Origin: Eledone cirrhosa
Taxonomy: Eukaryota
Direction of reading: 5' to 3'
NCBI GenBank assembly: GCA_964016885.1
Contig: OZ024740.1
Coordinates: 311,922,001 to 311,986,000, forward strand
Length of the DNA stretch: 64,000 nucleotides
Of the stretch, positions 7,991-48,036 are shown piece after piece. The notes under the pieces are model-generated. The model ran no database searches. It was not told where the DNA came from and saw nothing but the letters and a program-made list of their open reading frames with translations. The translations under genes were made by a program, and so were the position numbers. Each line of letters begins with the position of its first letter. The stretch's first letter is position 1.

Positions 7991-8045
7991 ACTGCTATAT
8001 ATATTTCGGTGACAGCCATCATTGGCTGTGACCTCTTCAGGCAGT
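7991..8045 (-). ncRNA. Type I hammerhead ribozyme (PLE pLTR type)
   Basis: actgc CTGAAGA ggtcacagcc-aatgat-ggctgtcacc GAAA tatata TA gcagt: 5-bp stem I, long stem II, palindromic stem III. Confidence 0.85.
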
Positions 8046-34417: not shown

Positions 34418-35426
34418 GATGGATAATTAACATTTTTTAACATCTTAACATCTTAAACTTTATAACATTTAACTTTATAACATTTAAACTACAGATTGAA
34501 TTGATAAATTATTAATTAAACATTTAATCAAATTTATTAATTAAACATTAGATACATTCTTCAACTTAGCTTTATCCATTTTTATTATTATCTGTTATTG
34601 GTTGTTATTAGTATTCATCCACGCTATATTTTTTCTTCGCATCTTCCCTCAAAATTACGCTATTCTCTCTCACTAAAATATACTCAGGTTTCTCTCTTTC
34701 TTTCTTTCGTTTTTTTTCCCTATTCCAACGGCTTAATTTAAATATACTGTTTTTAATAATATATATTCTTTAATAATATAATTTTTTAATAATATATATT
34801 CTTTAATAATATAATTTTTTAATAATATATATTCTCTAATAATATAATTTTTTAATAAAATATATATTCTCTAATAATAATATAATATAACATACACATT
34901 TAAACATTTAAACTACGGATTGAATTGATAAATTATTAATTAAATATTTAATCAAAATTATTAATTAAACAATAGATAAATTCTTCAACTTAACTTTATT
35001 ATTGTTTTTATCCACCTTTTTATTAGTATCTGTTATTAGTTGCTATTCATCCACACTATATATTTTTTTGATAAGTATCTGTTATTAGTTGTTATCATTG
35101 ATTTATCCATCTTACGGTATTCATCCACTCTATATTTATTTTCTTCGTCTCTTCTCTCAAAATTACGCTATTCTCTCTCACTAAAATATACTCAGATGTC
35201 TCTCTTTCTTTTTTTCTTTCCTTCGTTTTTTCTCTTTCTTTTCTTTTTTTCTCCTATTCCAACGGCTTAATTTAAATATACTGTTTTAAAGCTTTCCAAC
35301 ACTAATTTGCATAATAAACCAACAATAAATCTAATAACTCCACTATCCAGGAGATTCCAACCAGAATGGTTACATTTTTTTTTAAGGGTATGTCAATATT
35401 TATTTATAAAACTAACCTATATTATA

Positions 35427-35488
35427 TTTTATCTGATGAAAGCGCACCATAGTTTGCTCTGGTGGCCCTTGAAATATGTATAATTAAA
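35427..35488 (+). ncRNA. Type I hammerhead in 5' pLTR (family P)
   Basis: ttttat CTGATGA aagcgcacca...tggtggccctt GAAA tatgta TA attaaa. Confidence 0.75.
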
Positions 35489-37459
35489 TAAATATGGTTT
35501 TATAAATATAGTTTCTATTTGTTAATATATTGTATATTTACTCCAATAATTTGTTGAGTGCTTTATATCAGTTATAAAAATATTTAGCTTGTTGTATCCC
35601 AACAAATTAAATATAACCTCTACATATACTTTGCTCCTTTACTGTCGAGCGCTTTAAATTATAACTGAAAAATAATGGAATTCTTTAAGATCTCTTCTTC
35701 TCTAAAGGACATACCTTTACCTAGGAAAAAGACTTTATAAAACAATTAATAGAAAAATCAAACTCATTTATAAGAAGACTCAGATGGCGTGCTTTCCATT
35801 TTGATAAATCAGATGATAAAGAGAATATTTCCAATCTTGATAGAATCTTCAAATCTAAAAAGAATCCACCTTCCAACAAACTACTAATGGATTTTGAAAA
35901 TGAAATCATCTCTATCATTCAAAGCATTAAATTTAAAAATAAACAACTTCATAGGCCAGGATTACTTAAGAAATCTCAAAAATAATATAGAAAGCTTTGA
36001 AAAAACGGAAAAAATTCTAGTCAAGTCAGACAAAACTAACAATCTCTATGGAATGCAAAAGGATATTTATCGCGATCTTATACTAAAAGAATTAAGGAAG
36101 AAATACAAAAAGACAACTTATGATGACCTTGAAAAATTGAATACAGAAGCTTCTTACATAATGCAAGAATTAGGCATTGCAAATAGGACACAACCCTTCA
36201 TGCCAAGAAAACCAAAAATTAATATGAAGGACCATAAAAGGAATTTTGAAATTGAATTACCAGTTAGATTAATTGCACCATCTAAATCGGACCTTGGCAT
36301 ACGTAGCAAGAACATTTTAGACAGAATCATACCACAAATTAAAGAATTATCTTATTTAAAATTGTGGAAAGGAACTAACTAAGTTATCGACTGGTTTAAA
36401 GACATTAAATATAACTATAATAATAAGTTTATTCAATTGGATATTGCTAATTATTACTCATCCATCACTCCTAATCTACTTAACAAAGCCCTAATATATG
36501 CATTTAAACATACAGACTTAACTAGTAATGAAATGCGCATTATCTTAACTGCACGGAAAACATTAATTAAATTTACCAACCAGCTCTGGACTAGAGCAGA
36601 CAGAGATAATAATTTCGATATCACTATGGGGTCATCGGATTCCGCCCAGGTAACGGATCTTGTGGGGCTTTTTGTTAATAATACCCTACATAGAAAAATA
36701 CCGGAGATGACCGGAGGTTTATATTGCGACGATATGCTATTACTTATAGAAAATAATAATAACTGTGAAATAAATAGGAAAAGAAAAGAAATTATACAAT
36801 TTTTTAATTACCTTAATCTTGAAGTAGAAATAGAGAATAATTATAAAATAGTTAACTTTCTAGATATAACTTTAAACCTTAACACAGGTCTTTATTATCC
36901 ATTTCACAAAATAAACGAAAACTTAAACTACGTTAATTTTAATTTAAATCACCCCATATCCGTTAAAAACACTATAGTAAACTCTGTGCAGCAACGTATT
37001 TCTAGAATTTCAGCTAATAAGAATATTTTTGAAGATAAAGCGCAATATTATAACGATGCGTTAGGTAGAGCGGGATATAGCAATAAAATGAAATACATTG
37101 ATAGTAATATTATGACAAATAACTATAATTTTAACAAATATAATAGAAAACCTTACAATAATTCGGAAAACAAAAAAAGAAATAGAACTAGGAATATATT
37201 ATGGTTCGCTCCTCCTTTCTCATTAAGTAATAAAACTCCTATTGCTAAATTATTTTTTAAAGCTCTAGATAAATGCTTCCCTAGAACACATTCCAACGGC
37301 TTAATTTAAATATACTGTTTTAAAGCTTTCCACCACTAATTTGCATAATAAACCAACAATAAATCTAATAACTCCACTATCCAGAAGATTCCAACCAGAA
37401 TGGTTACATTTCTTTTAAGGGTATGTCAATATTTATTTATAAAACTAACCTATATTATA

Positions 37460-37521
37460 TTTTATCTGATGAAAGCGCACCATAGTTTGCTCTGGTGGCC
37501 TTTGAAATATGTATAATGAAA
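37460..37521 (+). ncRNA. Type I hammerhead in 3' pLTR (family P)
   Basis: Copy of 35427-35488. Confidence 0.7.
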
Positions 37522-37653
37522 TAAATATGGTTTTATAAATATTGTTTCCATTTGTTAATATATTATATATTTACTCCAATAATTTGTTGAGTGCTTTATA
37601 TCAGTTATAAAAATATTTAGCTTGTTGTATCCCAACAAATTAAATATAACCTC

Positions 37654-38721
<1,068 letters not shown>

Positions 38722-39444: not shown

Positions 39445-41430
39445 CACTTTCCGCCACCTGACCCATAACGCTATTACTTCTAAATATAAGAAAGCTAACC
39501 CTATGGCCTACCACGACATTAATACAGAAGCCAAGGAACTCGCCACCGACCTTAAGGTTGATAAGAAGCTACAATCTCTAGCTAAGCGAGAGGCGTTCCT
39601 CACCCTGAAAGATCACAAGGTAGACTTTACTTCTAACCCCACATGCAGACTAATAAACCCAGCACGCACAGATATGGGACTAGTCAGTAAGGCCATACTT
39701 AGAAACATAGTTAAGACCATTAGGACCAAGTTCAACCTGCCCCAGTGGGAGAACAGCGACTCCGTAATTAAGTGGTTTAACTCCTTTAAATCCCAAAAAG
39801 CGAAGTTTACACAATTTGACATTGTCGATTTTTACCCGTCGATCTCAGAGACCCTGTTAAAGAAAGCGTTGGACTTCGCTACCACTTATACCACCGTCGA
39901 TGGTTTAGACAGGGAAATCATCGCTCACTGCCGGAAAACCCTCCTCTTCAACGACGGATTAGCCTGGGCAAAGAAGTCTACATCTTCAGACCTGTTCGAC
40001 GTCTCCATGGGATCGTTTGACAGTGCTGACGTATGTGACTTGGTTGGCCTTTTTATCTTAGACATATTACGTGTTAGATTCCCGGACTTCCACACAGGAA
40101 TATACCGTGACGATGGACTGACTTTATCGAGCCATGAAAGTGGTCACGACCTCGACCGGTTTAAAAAAGACTTAGCTTCTACCTTCAATGGGTTAGGCCT
40201 TAGGATAACAGTAGCCACCAACCTCTCTAGCGTGGATTTCTTAGACATTAATTTAGATCTTCGCACACATACCCACAGACCCTTCCATAAGCTAAACGAG
40301 AAACTTAATTACATTTACAAGGACTCATGCCACCCTCCCACTGTTTTTAGAAACTTCGTTAAGAATATCAGTACTAGAATCTCAAACCTCTACTCTAATA
40401 AGGCTATCTTTGACAGGGCGGCACCCTACTATAACACGGCGTTGGCTAACAGCGACTTCTCACAACCTATCACCTACTCTCCCACTAGCAACAACACCAT
40501 TAAAAAAGTAAGCGCATCAATAGACAAACTATCTGGTTCTCTCCTCCCTTCTCACTCAACGTTAAAACCAATGTAGGAAAAAAAATTCTAGCCCTCTTAG
40601 ATAGACACTTCCCCATATGTCATAAATACCGCTCCATCTTTAACCAACACAAAGTTAAACTAGGATACTCCTGCACTAAGAACATGAAGGCCCACATCAC
40701 CAGCAGCCCTAGGAGCAATACCCCACCAGGGTGCTCTTGCCGTAAGCCTGAAGCTTGCCCCCTTCAACAACAATGCAACACACCAGCTGTAATCTATGAA
40801 GCTGTGGTCACTTCCAACCGACCAAACGAACCACAAGAGGTCAAATCCTATGTGGGCATGGCGGAGGGCCGATTCAAGGAGCGTTTCCTGAACCACCAGT
40901 CTACCTTCAGATACCCGGACAGACGTTCATCCACGAAACTCGCGAGCCACGTATGGTCCCTCAAGGACTCAAGTATAGGGTACTCCATTCAATGGAAAGC
41001 CATCACTAAGTCCAAGCCATACGCAAGAGGAAATCCGACGTGTGGCTTATGTATCGACGAACGAATAACTATCCTAAAGAGATTACGCAATAGTGATTGC
41101 CTAAACACGAGAAGTGAATTTTTCACACGTTGTCCACACGTCACCAAACATATATTACATAACTACAAGGCTCCGGACTGATTCTTTGTAATTTTATTTT
41201 TAAATCTTTTTATTTTATTTTCAACCCAAAAACTTTCCGGCCTTTCGCAGTTATTTCCCTTACACCCCCCGCACGCAGTCTACTATTGCCTGTGTGAAGT
41301 GACCGAGTTTCTGCGCATGCGCGTTCTACGGTTGTCCTTCCTGTTCCTATAACCATATACATCCCAAGCTGAAGATCCGCGAAGGTGAAACAATTGTTCT
41401 CGGTATGGTGAACTAACTGTTGTGTAATCA
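39445..41430 (+). mobile_element. Naiad-like PLE, 5'-truncated: RT (39503-40576), GIY-YIG (to 41181), pLTR
   Basis: CRLINPA, FDIVDFYPSI, MGSFDSADVCDLVG, IYRDDG, FLDI; CSCRKPEACPLQQQC, VIYEA..YVGMAE..FKERF..H, CGLC, CPH. Confidence 0.92.
41364..41403 (+). ncRNA. Minimal type I hammerhead in pLTR
   Basis: ccaag CTGAAGA tcc-gcgaa-ggt GAAA caattg TT ctcgg. Confidence 0.65.
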
Positions 41431-41476
<46 letters not shown>

Positions 41477-41505: not shown

Positions 41506-41684
<179 letters not shown>

Positions 41685-41738
41685 GACGTAAATAAGAAAA
41701 CTTTTTAAAAAATTAAAAATTAACTTACTAAAATTTTC

Positions 41739-41820
41739 ACTCCAACTAATTAGTTTCTGTAATGGGATAAAGATAGTTACGTAATATAACCATCGAGAAT
41801 TCATTACGTCATCAGGGAGT
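41739..41820 (-). ncRNA. Hammerhead with branched extended stem II (family A, copy 1)
   Basis: actcc CTGATGA c gtaatg [aattctc gatggtta-tattacg-taactatc tttatcc] cattac a GAAA ctaattag TT ggagt. Confidence 0.8.
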
Positions 41821-42276
41821 CTATTCTCATCTAAGTCTCCAGGCAATGCGCGGACACTAGGGACTCATATAAAAATAATAATAATTCGGTGGATGGAACA
41901 GCTAGCGGGGACTGGATTCCATGCACTGAAAAAGTTCGCTGTCTCTGGTCAAATGGCAGATTCTAAAGAATCAATCACGTGACACTGAGGCTAGTCGGAA
42001 GGAGTGGGCTGGTAAGATGACAAAAGCCTACTACCACACCAATGGATTAGTAGTGGTTTTGGCAGATTTGCTCAACAAATAAATAATTTGGAGATAAATA
42101 TAAAGAATTAGTATATCTACCAACATATGCGTACAGATGTACACTAATGCTAGCAAATACATAAGTTATGTCATAGTACCTAGGTGGTTCAATGCAGGGG
42201 GATGCAGAAAAAATATATGAAAGACGTAAATAAGAAAATTTAAAAAAAAATTAAAAATTAACTTACTAAAATTTTC

Positions 42277-42358
42277 ACTCCAACTAATTAGTTTCTGTAA
42301 TGGGATAAAGATAGTTACGTAATATAACCATCGAGAATTCATTACGTCATCAGGGAGT
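42277..42358 (-). ncRNA. Hammerhead with branched extended stem II (family A, copy 2)
   Basis: Same as copy 1; a third copy at 42819-42892 is truncated within the CUGAUGA box. Confidence 0.8.
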
Positions 42359-42965
42359 CTATTCTCAGCTAAGTCTCCAGGCAATGCGCGGACACTAGGG
42401 ACTCATATAAAAATAATAATAATTCGGTGGATGGAACAGCTAGCGGGGACTGGATTCCATGCACTGAAAAAGTTCGCTGTCTCTGGTCAAATGGCAGATT
42501 CTAAAGAATCAATCACGTGACACTGGGGCTAGTCGGAAGGAGTGGGTTGGTAAGATGACAAAAGCCTACTACCACACCAATGAATTAGTAGTGGTTTTGG
42601 CAGGTTTGCTCAACAAATAAATAATTTGGAGATAAATATAAAGAATTAGTATATCTACCAACATATGCGTACAGATGTACACTAATGCTAGCAAATACAT
42701 AAGTTATGTCATAGTACCTAGGTGGTTCAATGCAGGAGGATGCAGAACAAATATATGAAAGACGTAAATAAGAAAATTTAAAAAAAAATTAAAAATTAAC
42801 TTACTTACTAAAATTTTCACTCCAACTAATTAGTTTCTGTAATGGGATAAAGATAGTTAAGTAATATAACCATCGAGAATTCATTACGTCATACCTATGA
42901 CATAACTTATGTATTTGCTAGCATTAGTGTACATCTGTACGCATATGTTGGTAGATATACTAATT

Positions 42966-43048
<83 letters not shown>

Positions 43049-43200: not shown

Positions 43201-43461
43201 TATATATAAATTAATAAAAATAATGAATAGAAACAAAGAAACAGTTCCTTATATTAAAAAATTCATCATTTTACGATCGTTTCTAGGATATATATGTGTG
43301 TGTTGGTATAATATATAGATCTATGTAAAAAAAACTTTTTTTACATAGATCTATATAATATACATACCAACACACACATATATATCCTAGAAACGATCGT
43401 AAAATGATGAATTTTTTAATATAAGGAACTGTTTCTTTGTTTTTATTCATTATTTTTATTA

Positions 43462-43470
<9 letters not shown>
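43201..43470. repeat. ~270-bp hairpin centred at 43335
   Basis: ...gatctatgtaaaaaaaa-c-tttttttacatagatc... with arms matching outwards. Confidence 0.9.
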
Positions 43471-43542
<72 letters not shown>

Positions 43543-43593
43543 GAGAGACGTAAAATAAGAAAATTATAAAATTAACTTACTTACTAAAATATC

Positions 43594-43675
43594 ACTTCCA
43601 ACTAATTAGTTTCTGGAATGGAGTTAATATATTTTCCGAAGAAGATATTGAGAAGCATTCCGTCGTCAGGAAAGT
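43594..43675 (-). ncRNA. Hammerhead with extended stem II (family B, inverted copy)
   Basis: Reverse complement of 44316-44397. Confidence 0.8.
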
Positions 43676-44315
43676 CTATTCTCGTATAAATTTCCAGGCA
43701 AAGCGAGGACTCTGGAAACTTATTAAAAAATAATTCAGTGGATAGGAAATAGCGAAGCGTGGACTGAATTCCTAGCCATTGAGAAAATCTCTGCCTCTGC
43801 GTCTGTGGCAAATTCAAAAAGAATCAAACACGTGACATCGAGGTCAATCAGTGGAAAGTGGTTCGCTATTGGAAGTGATATTTTAGTAATAAGTTAATTT
43901 TATAATTTTCTTATTTTACGTCTCTCATATTATTATTCTGCAACCCCATGCATTGAACCACAATGTTATTAAGACAAAACCTATATATTTGCTAGCATCG
44001 ATATGCATCTGTATGTATATATATGTTACTAGATATGAATTCTTTATAATTATCTCCAAATTATTTGTCGAGCAATATTGGCCATGACTGCTGCTATGGT
44101 AGTAGGCAGGCCGCTGTCTTAATAGCGAACCACTTTCCACTGATTGACCTCGATGTCACGTGTTTGATTCTTTTTGAATTTGCCACAGACGCAGAGGCAG
44201 AGATTTTCTCAATGGCTAGGAATTCAGTCCACGCTTCGCTATTTCCTATCCACTGAATTATTTTTTAATAAGTTTCCAGAGTCCTCGCTTTGCCTGGAAA
44301 TTTATACGAGAATAG

Positions 44316-44397
44316 ACTTTCCTGACGACGGAATGCTTCTCAATATCTTCTTCGGAAAATATATTTACTCCATTCCAGAAACTAATTAGTTGGAAGT
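44316..44397 (+). ncRNA. Hammerhead with extended stem II (family B)
   Basis: actttc CTGACGA c ggaatg [cttctca atatcttc-ttcg-gaaaatat atttactc] cattcc a GAAA ctaattag TT ggaagt. Confidence 0.85.
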
Positions 44398-44565
44398 GAT
44401 ATTTTAGTAAGTAAGTTAATTTTATAATTTTCTTATTTTACGTCTCTCGTATTATTGTTCTGCAACCCCGTGCATTGAACCACAATGTTATTAAGACAAA
44501 ACCTATATATTTGCTAGCATCGATATGCATCTGTATGTATATATATGTTACTAGATATGAATTCT

Positions 44566-44602
<37 letters not shown>

Positions 44603-44606
<4 letters not shown>

Positions 44607-44705
44607 AAAATTTACGAAATGGAAATGCGGGTATATAGAATTTATTATTATATTGTTACCTAATAAATTCTATATACCCGCATTTCCATTTCGTAAATTT
44701 TTTCT
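44603..44705. repeat. ~100-bp hairpin (44-bp arms)
   Basis: agaaaaaatttacgaaatggaaatgcggg... / ...cccgcatttccatttcgtaaattttttct. Confidence 0.9.
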
Positions 44706-44811
44706 CCATATTTTCTCCGGATTTTAAAACACACTTTATTATACGTTGAGCAATCTCTGACGTCAGTTGACTCCATCCAATGCAACTACTTAGTAACATT
44801 GGAATACAAAT

Positions 44812-44871
<60 letters not shown>

Positions 44872-44910
44872 ATTAAATAAATGGAAACTATATTTATAAA
44901 ACCATATTTA

Positions 44911-44972
44911 TTTCATTATATATATTTCAGGGATATCATATTAACAATATGCTATGCCTTCCTCAGACAAAA
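44911..44972 (-). ncRNA. Type I hammerhead (family P variant), left palindrome arm
   Basis: Reverse complement of 47844-47905. Confidence 0.75.
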
Positions 44973-47843
44973 TACAATATAAACAGTTTTATAGATAAAT
45001 AGATTCGACATACCGTAACAACATCGACTTGTATTTGAAAAGGTTGATTTGGTAGTGAAAAAATTGTACACAGAGAGAAAGAAAGAGAGAAAAAAGAAAG
45101 AAAGACAGAAAACGAAGAAAAAGAAGAAAAAGAAGAAATGCATGGAACAAAATAGAGAGATGGAAAGATAGATAAAGAGAAGAACTTCATGTAAAGAAAC
45201 AGAAAGAGATATATATATATAGAGAGAGGGGAAATAGAGATAGATACATATATATAGAAAACTAGGTAGTGGGACGTCTGTTGAGTAAACGTATCAATAA
45301 TACATTTATTTATTTATTTATTTATTTAGCTCTAGTATTAATGTAAGGGAGATATATGGAGAGAAACCAGCTGTTATATATAGAGAGAAAATATATATAG
45401 AGAGAGAAAAAATATAGAGAGAGAAAAAATATAGAGAGAGAAAAAATTTAAAAATATCCAGACATAGGCGAGGCGTAAAAACCCTATGTTTTAATGTAGA
45501 GGTATTAGTATTTATAAAATCAGCCACTATATTGTAAATATCAGTATTCCTGAATGAGACATGTAACCATAATGTGTGAAAATTAATGATCTTATGTTTA
45601 GTTTTTTAAAAAAATTCATATGTTTATGTGATAACTACAAACATCTATGTGAATCTACATGATCAACTCTGCAAACCCTAAGTTCACGGAAAACATTCTC
45701 AATGTGGTATAAAAATTTAAGTATACATATATGTGTATATATATACACACAAATATATATAGAGTCAATATTAGTATTCCTGTCTTTACTCTACAAGATT
45801 ATCTATCAAGCAGAAATAGAGAGCAGATTTCAATATACTAATAAAAATATATATCAGAAACAAAACTAAAAAAATAACAATAATAATAATAAGTAATAAT
45901 AAAATAGAAAACTAAAAAATATTACGAAAGAATATTACATATTAAAAATATTACATATTAAAAAATTTACATATTAAAAATATTAAAAATAAAAATATTA
46001 GAAAATACTAGAAAATACTACAATAATAAAAAATAAAAATAAACCACAAAGATCAACCCTTCAAAATTAATTGACAATATATTGCCAAGTTCATTATAAG
46101 CATCAGAGTCGAAAAACAGATAAAGCCAAAAATTATCTATCAAATCGCATCTAGCAAAGATCATTTCAAAAAGTTTAGGATGCCCAATTTGGTCTACATG
46201 TGTTCTTATATTTAATATAGAAGTTTATCTAGTGTAACGTTTATTCGAAATATTTGGAGCATCAACTTTTAGGGTAGCTTAATTTTTCATGAAGAATGTT
46301 TAAATAAAAATAAAATTAAATAAAAAGAATAAAAAGAAGGAATCAAAGATTTATCGGCTAGTTTCCCATATAATTATAAATCAAACTAAATATACTACAT
46401 TTTAAATTTAAAATGTAGTATATTTAGTTTGATTTATAATTATATGGGAAACTAGCCGATAAATCTTTGATTCCTTCTTTTTATTCTTTTTATTTTATTT
46501 TATTTTTATTTAAACATTCTTCATGAAAAATTAAGCTACCCTAAAAGTTGATGCTCCAAATATTTCGAATAAACGTTACACTAGATAAACTTCTATATTA
46601 AATATAAGAACACATGTAGACCAAATTGGGCATCCTAAACTTTTTGAAATGATCTTTGCTAGATGCGATTTGATAGATAATTTTTGGCTTTATCTGTTTT
46701 TCGACTCTGATGCTTATAATGAACTTGGCAATATATTGTCAATTAATTTTGAAGGGTTGATCTTTGTGGTTTATTTTTATTTTTTATTATTGTAGTATTT
46801 TCTAGTATTTTCTAATATTTTTATTTTTAATATTTTTAATATGTAAATTTTTTAATATGTAATATTTTTAATATGTAATATTCTTTCGTAATATTTTTTA
46901 GTTTTCTATTTTATTATTACTTATTATTATTATTGTTATTTTTTTAGTTTTGTTTCTGATATATATTTTTATTAGTATATTGAAATCTGCTCTCTATTTC
47001 TGCTTGATAGATAATCTTGTAGAGAAAAGACAGGAATACTAATATTGACTCTATATATATTTGTGTGTATATATATATACACATATATGTATACTTAAAT
47101 TTTTATACCACATTGAGAATGTTTTCCGTGAACCTAGGGTTTGCAGAGTTGATCATGTAGATTCACATAGATGTTTGTAGTTATCACATAAACATATGAA
47201 TTTTTTTTAAAAACTAAACATAAGATCATTAATTTTCACACATTATGGTTACATGTCTCATTCAGGAATACTGATATTTACAATATAGTGGCTGGTTTTA
47301 TAAATACTAATACCTCTACATTAAAACATAGGGTTTTTACGCCTCGCCTATGTCTGGATATTTTTAAATTTTTTCTCTCTCTATATTTTTTCTCTCTCTA
47401 TATTTTTTCTCTCTCTATATATTTTTTCTCTCTATATATAACAGCTGGTTTCTCTCCATATATCTCCCTTACATTAATACTAGAGCTAAATAAATAAATA
47501 AATAAATAAATGTATTATTGATACGTTTACTCAACAGACGTCCCACTACCTAGTTTTCTATATATATGTATCTATCTCTATTTCCTCTCTCTCTCTATAT
47601 ATATATCTCTTTCTGTTTCTTTACATGAAGTTCTTCTCTTTATCTATCTTTCCATCTCTCTATTTTGTTCCATGCATTTCTTCTTTTTCTTCTTTTTCTT
47701 CGTTTTCTGTCTTTCTTTCCTTTTTTCTCTCTTTCTTTCTCTCTGTGTACAATTTTTTCACTACCAAATCAACCTTTTCAAATACAAGTCGATGTTGTTA
47801 CGGTATGTCGAATCTATTTATCTATAAAACTGTTTATATTGTA

Positions 47844-47905
47844 TTTTGTCTGAGGAAGGCATAGCATATTGTTAATATGATATCCCTGAAATATATATAA
47901 TGAAA
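47844..47905 (+). ncRNA. Type I hammerhead (family P variant), right palindrome arm
   Basis: ttttgt CTGAGGA agg..catatt-gtt-aatatg..cct GAAA tatata TA atgaaa. Confidence 0.75.
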
Positions 47906-48036
47906 TAAATATGGTTTTATAAATATAGTTTCCATTTATTTAATATTGTAAATATACTCCAAATATTTGTCGAGTGCTTTTATATCAGTTATAAGTATTT
48001 ACTAGTTGTAACCCAACAATTTAAATATAACTTTCC

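Follow-up and report, generated by a model that had tools for sequence, protein, structure and literature searches.

The described systems closest to the repeat reported here are PLE hammerheads, as defined by Cervera and de la Pena (2014; PMC4209133), and the non-LTR retrozymes, defined by the same authors (2020; PMC7229834), with circular templates proposed in both papers. Retrozymes have since been described as deriving from PLE repeats and proposed to be non-autonomous PLE derivatives (Li, Clavereau and Pollet; bioRxiv 10.64898/2026.07.22.740005). PLE insertions carry inverted 5'-truncated copies and one-sided tails and lie in (TA)n targets (Craig et al. 2021; PMC8557442), and in vitro work has identified two internal RT start sites, with both target strands cut and extended (Frangieh et al. 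2024; PMC11167929). The same study found hammerhead cleavage to be dispensable in vitro and saw no RNA-seq reads that ended at the cut. The available sections of a report on octopus repeat annotation (PMC13282606) make no mention of ribozymes, and within the literature searched, which leaves most subscription journals outside, no title or abstract describes genomic breakpoints mapped against a hammerhead cut.

The copy considered here lies in a 64,000-nt window of the Eledone cirrhosa genome (GCA_964016885.1, contig OZ024740.1, positions 311,922,001 to 311,986,000 of the forward strand; all window coordinates are counted from its first base) and consists of two arms joined head to head. A (TA)n tract at 43465-43542 (no strand), apparently the left half of the target microsatellite, adjoins the 3' end of an inverted "short-tail" arm on the minus strand (43536-43870; unit positions 251-521 and 1-62). 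On the plus strand follow a complete 521-nt unit (43871-44391), which begins at the base 3' of the predicted cut, and a partial second unit (44392-44572; positions 1-178, with a "long-tail" 3' end), and a second (TA)n tract at 44567-44603 (no strand) would be the right half of the microsatellite. The first-pass annotation had placed the start of the plus-strand copy at 43871 with a 2-nt TT ambiguity, and sequence comparison within the window agrees, the first base of the plus arm lying directly 3' of the GUU of a type I hammerhead. The arm-arm join at 43871 reads TTCGCTATT followed directly by GGAAGTGAT, and the unit-unit join at 44392 reads TAATTAGTT followed by GGAAGTGAT, with GTT at 44389-44391, so that the TT overlap at 43869-43870 (no strand) is compatible with both arms. 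The region 43869-44050 aligns with 44390-44572 at 97.8% identity. The plus arm is indeed preceded by an inverted copy of its own downstream part, as had been noted, since 43536-43870 is the reverse complement of 44121-44455 with 333 of 335 positions identical; the short arm is wholly nested in the long arm at this locus. Each arm has its own hammerhead, that of the short-tail arm with its core at 43663-43669 and a predicted cut between 43600 and 43599, and the plus arm continues through an intact cut site between 44391 and 44392. Three alleles are common to the two arms and occur in 0, 0 and 1 of 100-127 other loci, and these near-private alleles indicate that both arms come from one template lineage. 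The complete unit has a GC content of 35% (0.351) and contains no ATG-started ORF of at least 40 aa, and an ORF check found the element without the RT and GIY-YIG endonuclease ORF that marks an autonomous PLE. The junction is real and was described correctly, and it belongs to a new family of a known element type.

The repeat is present in high copy number, as the 3.0-Gb genome contains 1936 exact matches to a 19-nt anchor placed just downstream of the cut and 2301 matches to a second anchor, and the unit measures 516-544 nt in most of 101 monomers. A SINE likeness suggests a cephalopod host. From its sequence, this high-copy, tandem and non-coding repeat with a hammerhead in each unit is classified as a non-LTR retrozyme, being a short tandem repeat with a type I hammerhead per unit and a GC content below 45%. 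Like the animal non-LTR retrozymes in the available description (PMC7229834), it has an AT-rich non-coding tandem unit with one type I hammerhead each and thousands of copies ranging from monomers to long multimers. The unit of 521-542 nt differs from the roughly 300 bp of the animal retrozymes, with RNAs of 170-400 nt (PMC7229834); the present unit falls outside the latter range, which is taken as descriptive rather than defining. The available retrozyme descriptions mention neither the two-armed head-to-head insertion nor fixed 3' ends. Comparison with the 3' repeat of a neighbouring element, made to look for homology to the pLTR of an autonomous PLE, yielded a 30-nt AT-rich match and no real homology, and no autonomous partner emerged. 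One head-to-head locus elsewhere in the assembly (G000:C5:11373443-11379524) has more than 10 tandem units in one arm.

The type I hammerhead at 44316-44397 on the plus strand was delimited by a motif scan and an alignment of 237 copies. It comprises the helix I 5' strand (44316-44321), CUGACGA (44322-44328), helix II (44329-44377) closed by a C.A mismatch, GAAA (44378-44381), the palindromic helix III (44381-44390), U17 (44391) and the helix I 3' strand (44392-44397), with helix I pairing as ACTTTC/GGAAGT. The GUU at 44389-44391 that had been flagged as the cleavage site is accordingly found within a hammerhead, with CTGACGA at 44322-44328, GAAA at 44378-44381 and helices I and III in place. 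The motif has 15 matches in the window and none in each of 30 shuffles, two of the 15 (10565 and 39053) having very long loops and possibly being chance matches. An Rfam scan returned nothing at the gathering score. The monomer MFE fold of the hammerhead region is not better than that of shuffles (z=-0.03), and in the dimer fold the palindromes pair and the active core does not; neither fold is informative on activity. The 237 hammerheads come from the window and the sampled loci and, being mutually related, do not represent independent events. Of these, 210 have an intact core; pairing is seen in 97-100% at helix II pairs 2-7 and in 93-99% at helix I pairs 1-5, and pair 3 of helix II has compensatory changes (G-C 170, A-U 58, C-G 3, U-A 2). 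The PLE-type core CUGANGA / GAAA / UH is present together with paired helices I and II and a palindromic helix III. In common with PLE-type hammerheads as described in the accessible text of PMC4209133 are the conserved core, the extra base between 9 and 10.1, G10.1-C11.1 and the palindromic helix III, which is expected to act as a dimer. Unlike those hammerheads, C11.1 does not directly precede G12, an extra A intervening in 236 of 237 copies, helix II is long and closed by C.A in 236 of 237, and U occupies the cleavage position (GUU triplet) in 233 of 237. The hammerhead assignment holds, and self-cutting is predicted.

Several neighbouring elements in the window also carry hammerhead motifs. 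At 41675-42977 lies a related family, with a 538-542-nt unit and about 72% identity, that shares the hammerhead, the C.A closing pair and the two-armed layout and has further compensatory changes in helix II. The element at 39445-41432, of which copies about 90% identical occur at other loci, contains a broken RT and endonuclease-like ORF in two frames that is RT-like by atlas features; we recognize in it an endonuclease motif and take it to resemble a Penelope-type element. In the 3' repeat of this element, a small hammerhead occurs at 41369; it has GUU and a palindromic helix III, its closing pair is U.U, and 34 nt further on the repeat ends in (TA)n. A second broken RT ORF at 35376-37661, 39% identical to the first, lies between 253-nt direct repeats, and Pfam and PDB searches of these neighbouring ORFs assigned no family. 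A 3.1-kb near-perfect palindrome without spacer (44860-47956; 99.2%) carries one hammerhead motif close to either outer end, at 44966 on the minus strand and at 47850 on the plus strand. Its ends are related to the 35376/37409 repeats, and it may have arisen as a symmetric head-to-head insertion or through fold-back in the assembly. Hammerhead motifs with a palindromic helix III occur in other repeat families at 8040, 26787, 26902, 27833, 28158 and 38528. Small palindromic elements adjoin (TA)n tracts at 38367-38721, 43201-43472 and 44597-44711, which suggests nested insertions into one microsatellite.

Arms were traced in three samples, namely 58 loci from the first 100 of the 1936 anchor matches, the first 100 of the 156 matches to a pattern that targets the long 3' end, and another 24 loci from the second-anchor list; 4 doubly sampled loci, one censored fragment and 6 arms that were duplicates or had been mis-traced were removed. 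Two sampling patterns based on a rare variant had no match, and a third matched only 9 copies. An inverted partner is present at the 5' end of 186 of 236 traced arms, 33 others adjoining microsatellite and 17 something else. The 3' ends are fixed near +62 (short) or +178 (long) after the cut, against (TA)n, the (TA)n at both arm ends being partly built into the sample anchors. A short end is paired with a long end in 75 of the 76 joins with both ends identified by motif, in 95 of 114 joins by a BLAST-based count (2 same-type, 17 unclassified) and in all 29 classifiable joins of the sample not anchored on the 3' end. The rule is seen in five large contigs, and head-to-head joints of like kind occur in contigs of a separate public sample, represented by three runs; no RNA data set was listed among those containing the element. 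The two arms are nested in 42 of 75 pairs and not nested in 33 (one of which, L255, is a reference-coordinate artefact). Short+long pairing in 75 of 76 joins and the lack of nesting in 33 of 75 pairs require two separately primed cDNAs. Opposite arms of a locus differ by 1.8% and different loci by 6.0%, and rare alleles are shared between the arms of one locus in 20% of cases vs 0.7% between loci. Among 112 joins, 79 have an overlap of at least 1 nt (mostly 1-6 nt), 18 are blunt and 15 contain an insertion; symmetric joins are common throughout (21/112), no two of 76 joins have both breakpoints identical, and the distribution of arm lengths is consistent with an exponential (n=99, mean 375 nt, KS p=0.29).

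These insertions have the traits of the PLE type, namely an inverted 5'-truncated copy, a one-sided tail from two 3' ends and a (TA)n target. The likeness to PLE insertions, as far as they are described in the available text of PMC8557442 and PMC11167929, extends to partial tandems, a tail on one end, (TA)n or AT-rich targets and two internal RT start sites 3' of the hammerhead. The present family differs from them in having no ORF and in the spacing of its two ends, about 116 nt here vs 30-40 in the PLE descriptions, and the strict pairing of one short and one long end per insertion is shown here.

The 5' breakpoints were plotted relative to the predicted cut, as the first-pass annotation had proposed, and form no spike there, yet are not fully uniform. 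The unbiased sample for breakpoints is the 156 arms anchored at the 3' end, as the initial DNA search favours full-length copies and breakpoint rates were not taken from it, and filtered patterns favour fold-back joins and TA flanks and were used for local shape only. In the 3'-anchored sample, the mean stop rate is about 0.0026-0.0027 per nt, and none of 151 arrivals at the cut stopped within -2 to +1 vs 1.2 expected, a sample too small to exclude a twofold excess there. At the mean rate, an arm passing the 3-nt cut window has about a 0.8% chance of stopping in it, and the rate observed genome-wide is about 1.3-1.5%; a stop at the cut is uncommon, yet expected in a few dozen of the roughly 2000 copies. 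Intact junctions are read through in at least 98% of passes, and 108 of 110 copies of the C1 sample keep the hammerhead side upstream. Genome-wide, a first filter picked out 23 of 1936 copies in which the upstream side is broken; 18 of them are true arm starts, this copy among them, 2 are single-T insertions and 3 carry one and the same internal deletion. A second filter gave 97 rows, less 7 internal deletions, and by hand tally 21 of the remaining 90 start in -2 to +1 vs about 12.6 expected. The union of both filters gives at least 26 of 1936 arms stopping at -2 to +1 vs 15 expected (p=0.007), or 23 arms after collapsing duplicates (p=0.035); capture-recapture arithmetic places the number at about 29, with 26 as the lower bound. 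The 26 cut-site arms match the upstream sequence over 0, 1 and 2 nt in 4, 12 and 10 cases, respectively (hand tally), so that 22 keep the base before the cut. This split is compatible with uniform stopping (p=0.19) and excludes a blunt stop at +1 (p=1.5e-6) unless the enzyme adds an untemplated A. Other RTs make such additions, which at a cleaved end would also give T at -1.

The enrichment at -2 to +1, about 1.7-1.9-fold, resembles the edge of a broader twofold zone, of which the cut forms the upstream limit. Positions +2 to +24 have 22 stops vs 10.9 expected in the pooled samples (p=0.0015), about twice the mean rate, in bins picked after a by-eye tally of 66 events among 100 of 402 rows (34 dropped as length variants, duplicates or unclear); the zone was threefold in the tally and twofold in the unbiased sample. 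With similar exposure, positions -22 to -3 have 5 stops vs 12.4 expected (pooled). An equally strong zone at unit positions 436-462 is the top window of a scan, with 29 stops vs 14.4 expected (scan-corrected p=0.022), and the two zones are the two strands of an extended helix I, 436-462 also taking in the core. Both arms stop in -2 to +20 in 6 of 112 joins vs 1.6 expected (permutation p=0.001), the doubled rate alone giving by arithmetic about 3.7 of 21 symmetric joins in that interval. The roughly twofold excess at -2 to +24 could be caused by RNA cleavage, helix I stalling or microhomology. At three loci (L121, L122 and L123; about 1395-1565), one arm is without unit positions 442-521, the entire hammerhead, and rejoins exactly at +1; this deletion is probably one event copied three times, and a similar joint is present in public contigs. 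Two others (L101, 1504; L112, 1520) have an additional T at the unit junction (GUUU), which could reflect slippage or an untemplated base at ligation or at a template jump.

Taken together, this copy is one insertion of a 521-522-nt non-coding hammerhead retrozyme, likely copied by a Penelope-type RT/endonuclease, whose plus arm probably stopped by chance or stalling rather than at a cleaved end. The enzyme would cut both strands of the (TA)n tract and prime one cDNA per cut end, each at its own RNA start site, on a template that runs unbroken through the cut position, either a re-ligated circle or an uncleaved multimer; each cDNA would stop at a near-constant rate, and the two ends would then be joined by microhomology. 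Here the long arm would have copied 178 nt and crossed one junction, then continued through a whole unit to stop 0-2 nt beyond the following junction. The simplest reading of the TT overlap is joining microhomology, in which case the cDNA end lies 2 nt past the scissile bond. Unique junctions and arrays of at least 10 units suit a circular template, but in a test for rolling-circle homogenisation, units within one arm differ by 2.2% and the nearest other locus by 1.5%, the latter being the lowest value among many comparisons. Divergence between units is also slightly greater than between arms (2.3% vs 1.8%, p=0.047), and a near-private allele is shared between units in only 9 of 39 multi-unit loci. 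A re-ligated circle would itself need cleavage. Counting against chance stopping, the roughly doubled stops at -2 to +24 imply some process acting there.

The first-pass annotation had seen in this copy the genomic fossil of a self-cleaved RNA, of which the start of the plus arm at the cut stands and the cleaved origin is doubtful in view of the absence of stops among 151 arrivals and the read-through in at least 98% of passes. On that account, which we regard as unlikely, the template would be a linear RNA with a 5' end made by hammerhead cleavage, and the long cDNA would have run off at G+1 and been joined to the other arm bluntly or after an untemplated A, such templates being a minority (about 6% of passes, by arithmetic) and most cDNAs being trimmed by up to 20 nt before joining. 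The excess does lie just 3' of the cut and end there (22 stops at +2 to +24 vs 5 at -22 to -3), but the zone at 436-462 is equally strong, and the unbiased sample has no stop at the site itself. The surplus of stops at -2 to +1 points in the same direction, yet the T before the cut is missing in only 4 of the 26 arms concerned. Four loci (L106/107, L108-110, L119/120 and L133) have the stops of both arms no more than 3 nt from the cut, and the two-armed stops in -2 to +20 are the pattern expected of a shared template end, a signal weakened by the frequency of symmetric joins everywhere. Conservation of the hammerhead, with its compensatory changes in helix II and largely intact core, is consistent with cleavage, but at this locus the plus arm itself passes an intact cut site at 44391 and the join overlap comprises 2 nt 5' of the cut and none 3' of it. 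The share given to a cleaved end for this copy is small because a twofold excess leaves at most about half of the probability to a site-specific cause and the TT overlap lowers it further.

The inverted arm had in turn been attributed to a template switch, in which the cDNA, once stopped, would have served as its own template after folding back or jumping, so that its downstream part was copied. That origin is very improbable for this copy, even with its nested short arm and three near-private alleles common to both arms, and as a mechanism for the family it is unsupported. Inverted arms are present whatever the breakpoint, and while the 42 nested pairs suit a switch, the 33 that are not nested are impossible for a single cDNA folding back. 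In almost every case, the second arm also has its end at the other fixed RNA site, next to (TA)n, a position at which nothing would make a DNA-templated copy end. Non-nested pairs with a fixed second end refute template switching as a general mechanism. An artefact of assembly or of long-read fold-back, or a DNA rearrangement that came later and had nothing to do with retrotransposition, would fit the 99.4% identity of the arms, the other near-perfect palindromes in the window and a join not spanned by an independent read set, but it is hardly credible given arms that are asymmetric and differ at 2 sites, a short+long rule obeyed across five large contigs and like joints in a separate public sample.

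A fuller version of the two-primed reading, which we consider rather unlikely, is a complete Penelope-type cycle in which a dimeric RT/endonuclease primes both (TA)n ends at two fixed sites of one RNA. The templates would mostly be hammerhead-made circles, copied without stopping, and in a minority RNAs still linear after cleavage, on which cDNA synthesis terminates at the cut or a little 3' of it. If it is true, the zone at -2 to +24 and the loci at which both arms stop there would be genomic evidence of in vivo cleavage, with this copy among the fossils of a cleaved RNA.

For the part that PLE and retrozyme hammerheads play in transposition, cleavage having been found dispensable in vitro (PMC11167929), a young family of about 2000 copies offers a genomic test. 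By itself, the single flagged copy is weak evidence. The family data argue against cleaved linear RNA as the usual template and provide a testable rule, that each insertion consists of one cDNA from each of two start sites, and it is this family-level pairing rule, together with the modest excess beside the cut, that is worth testing.
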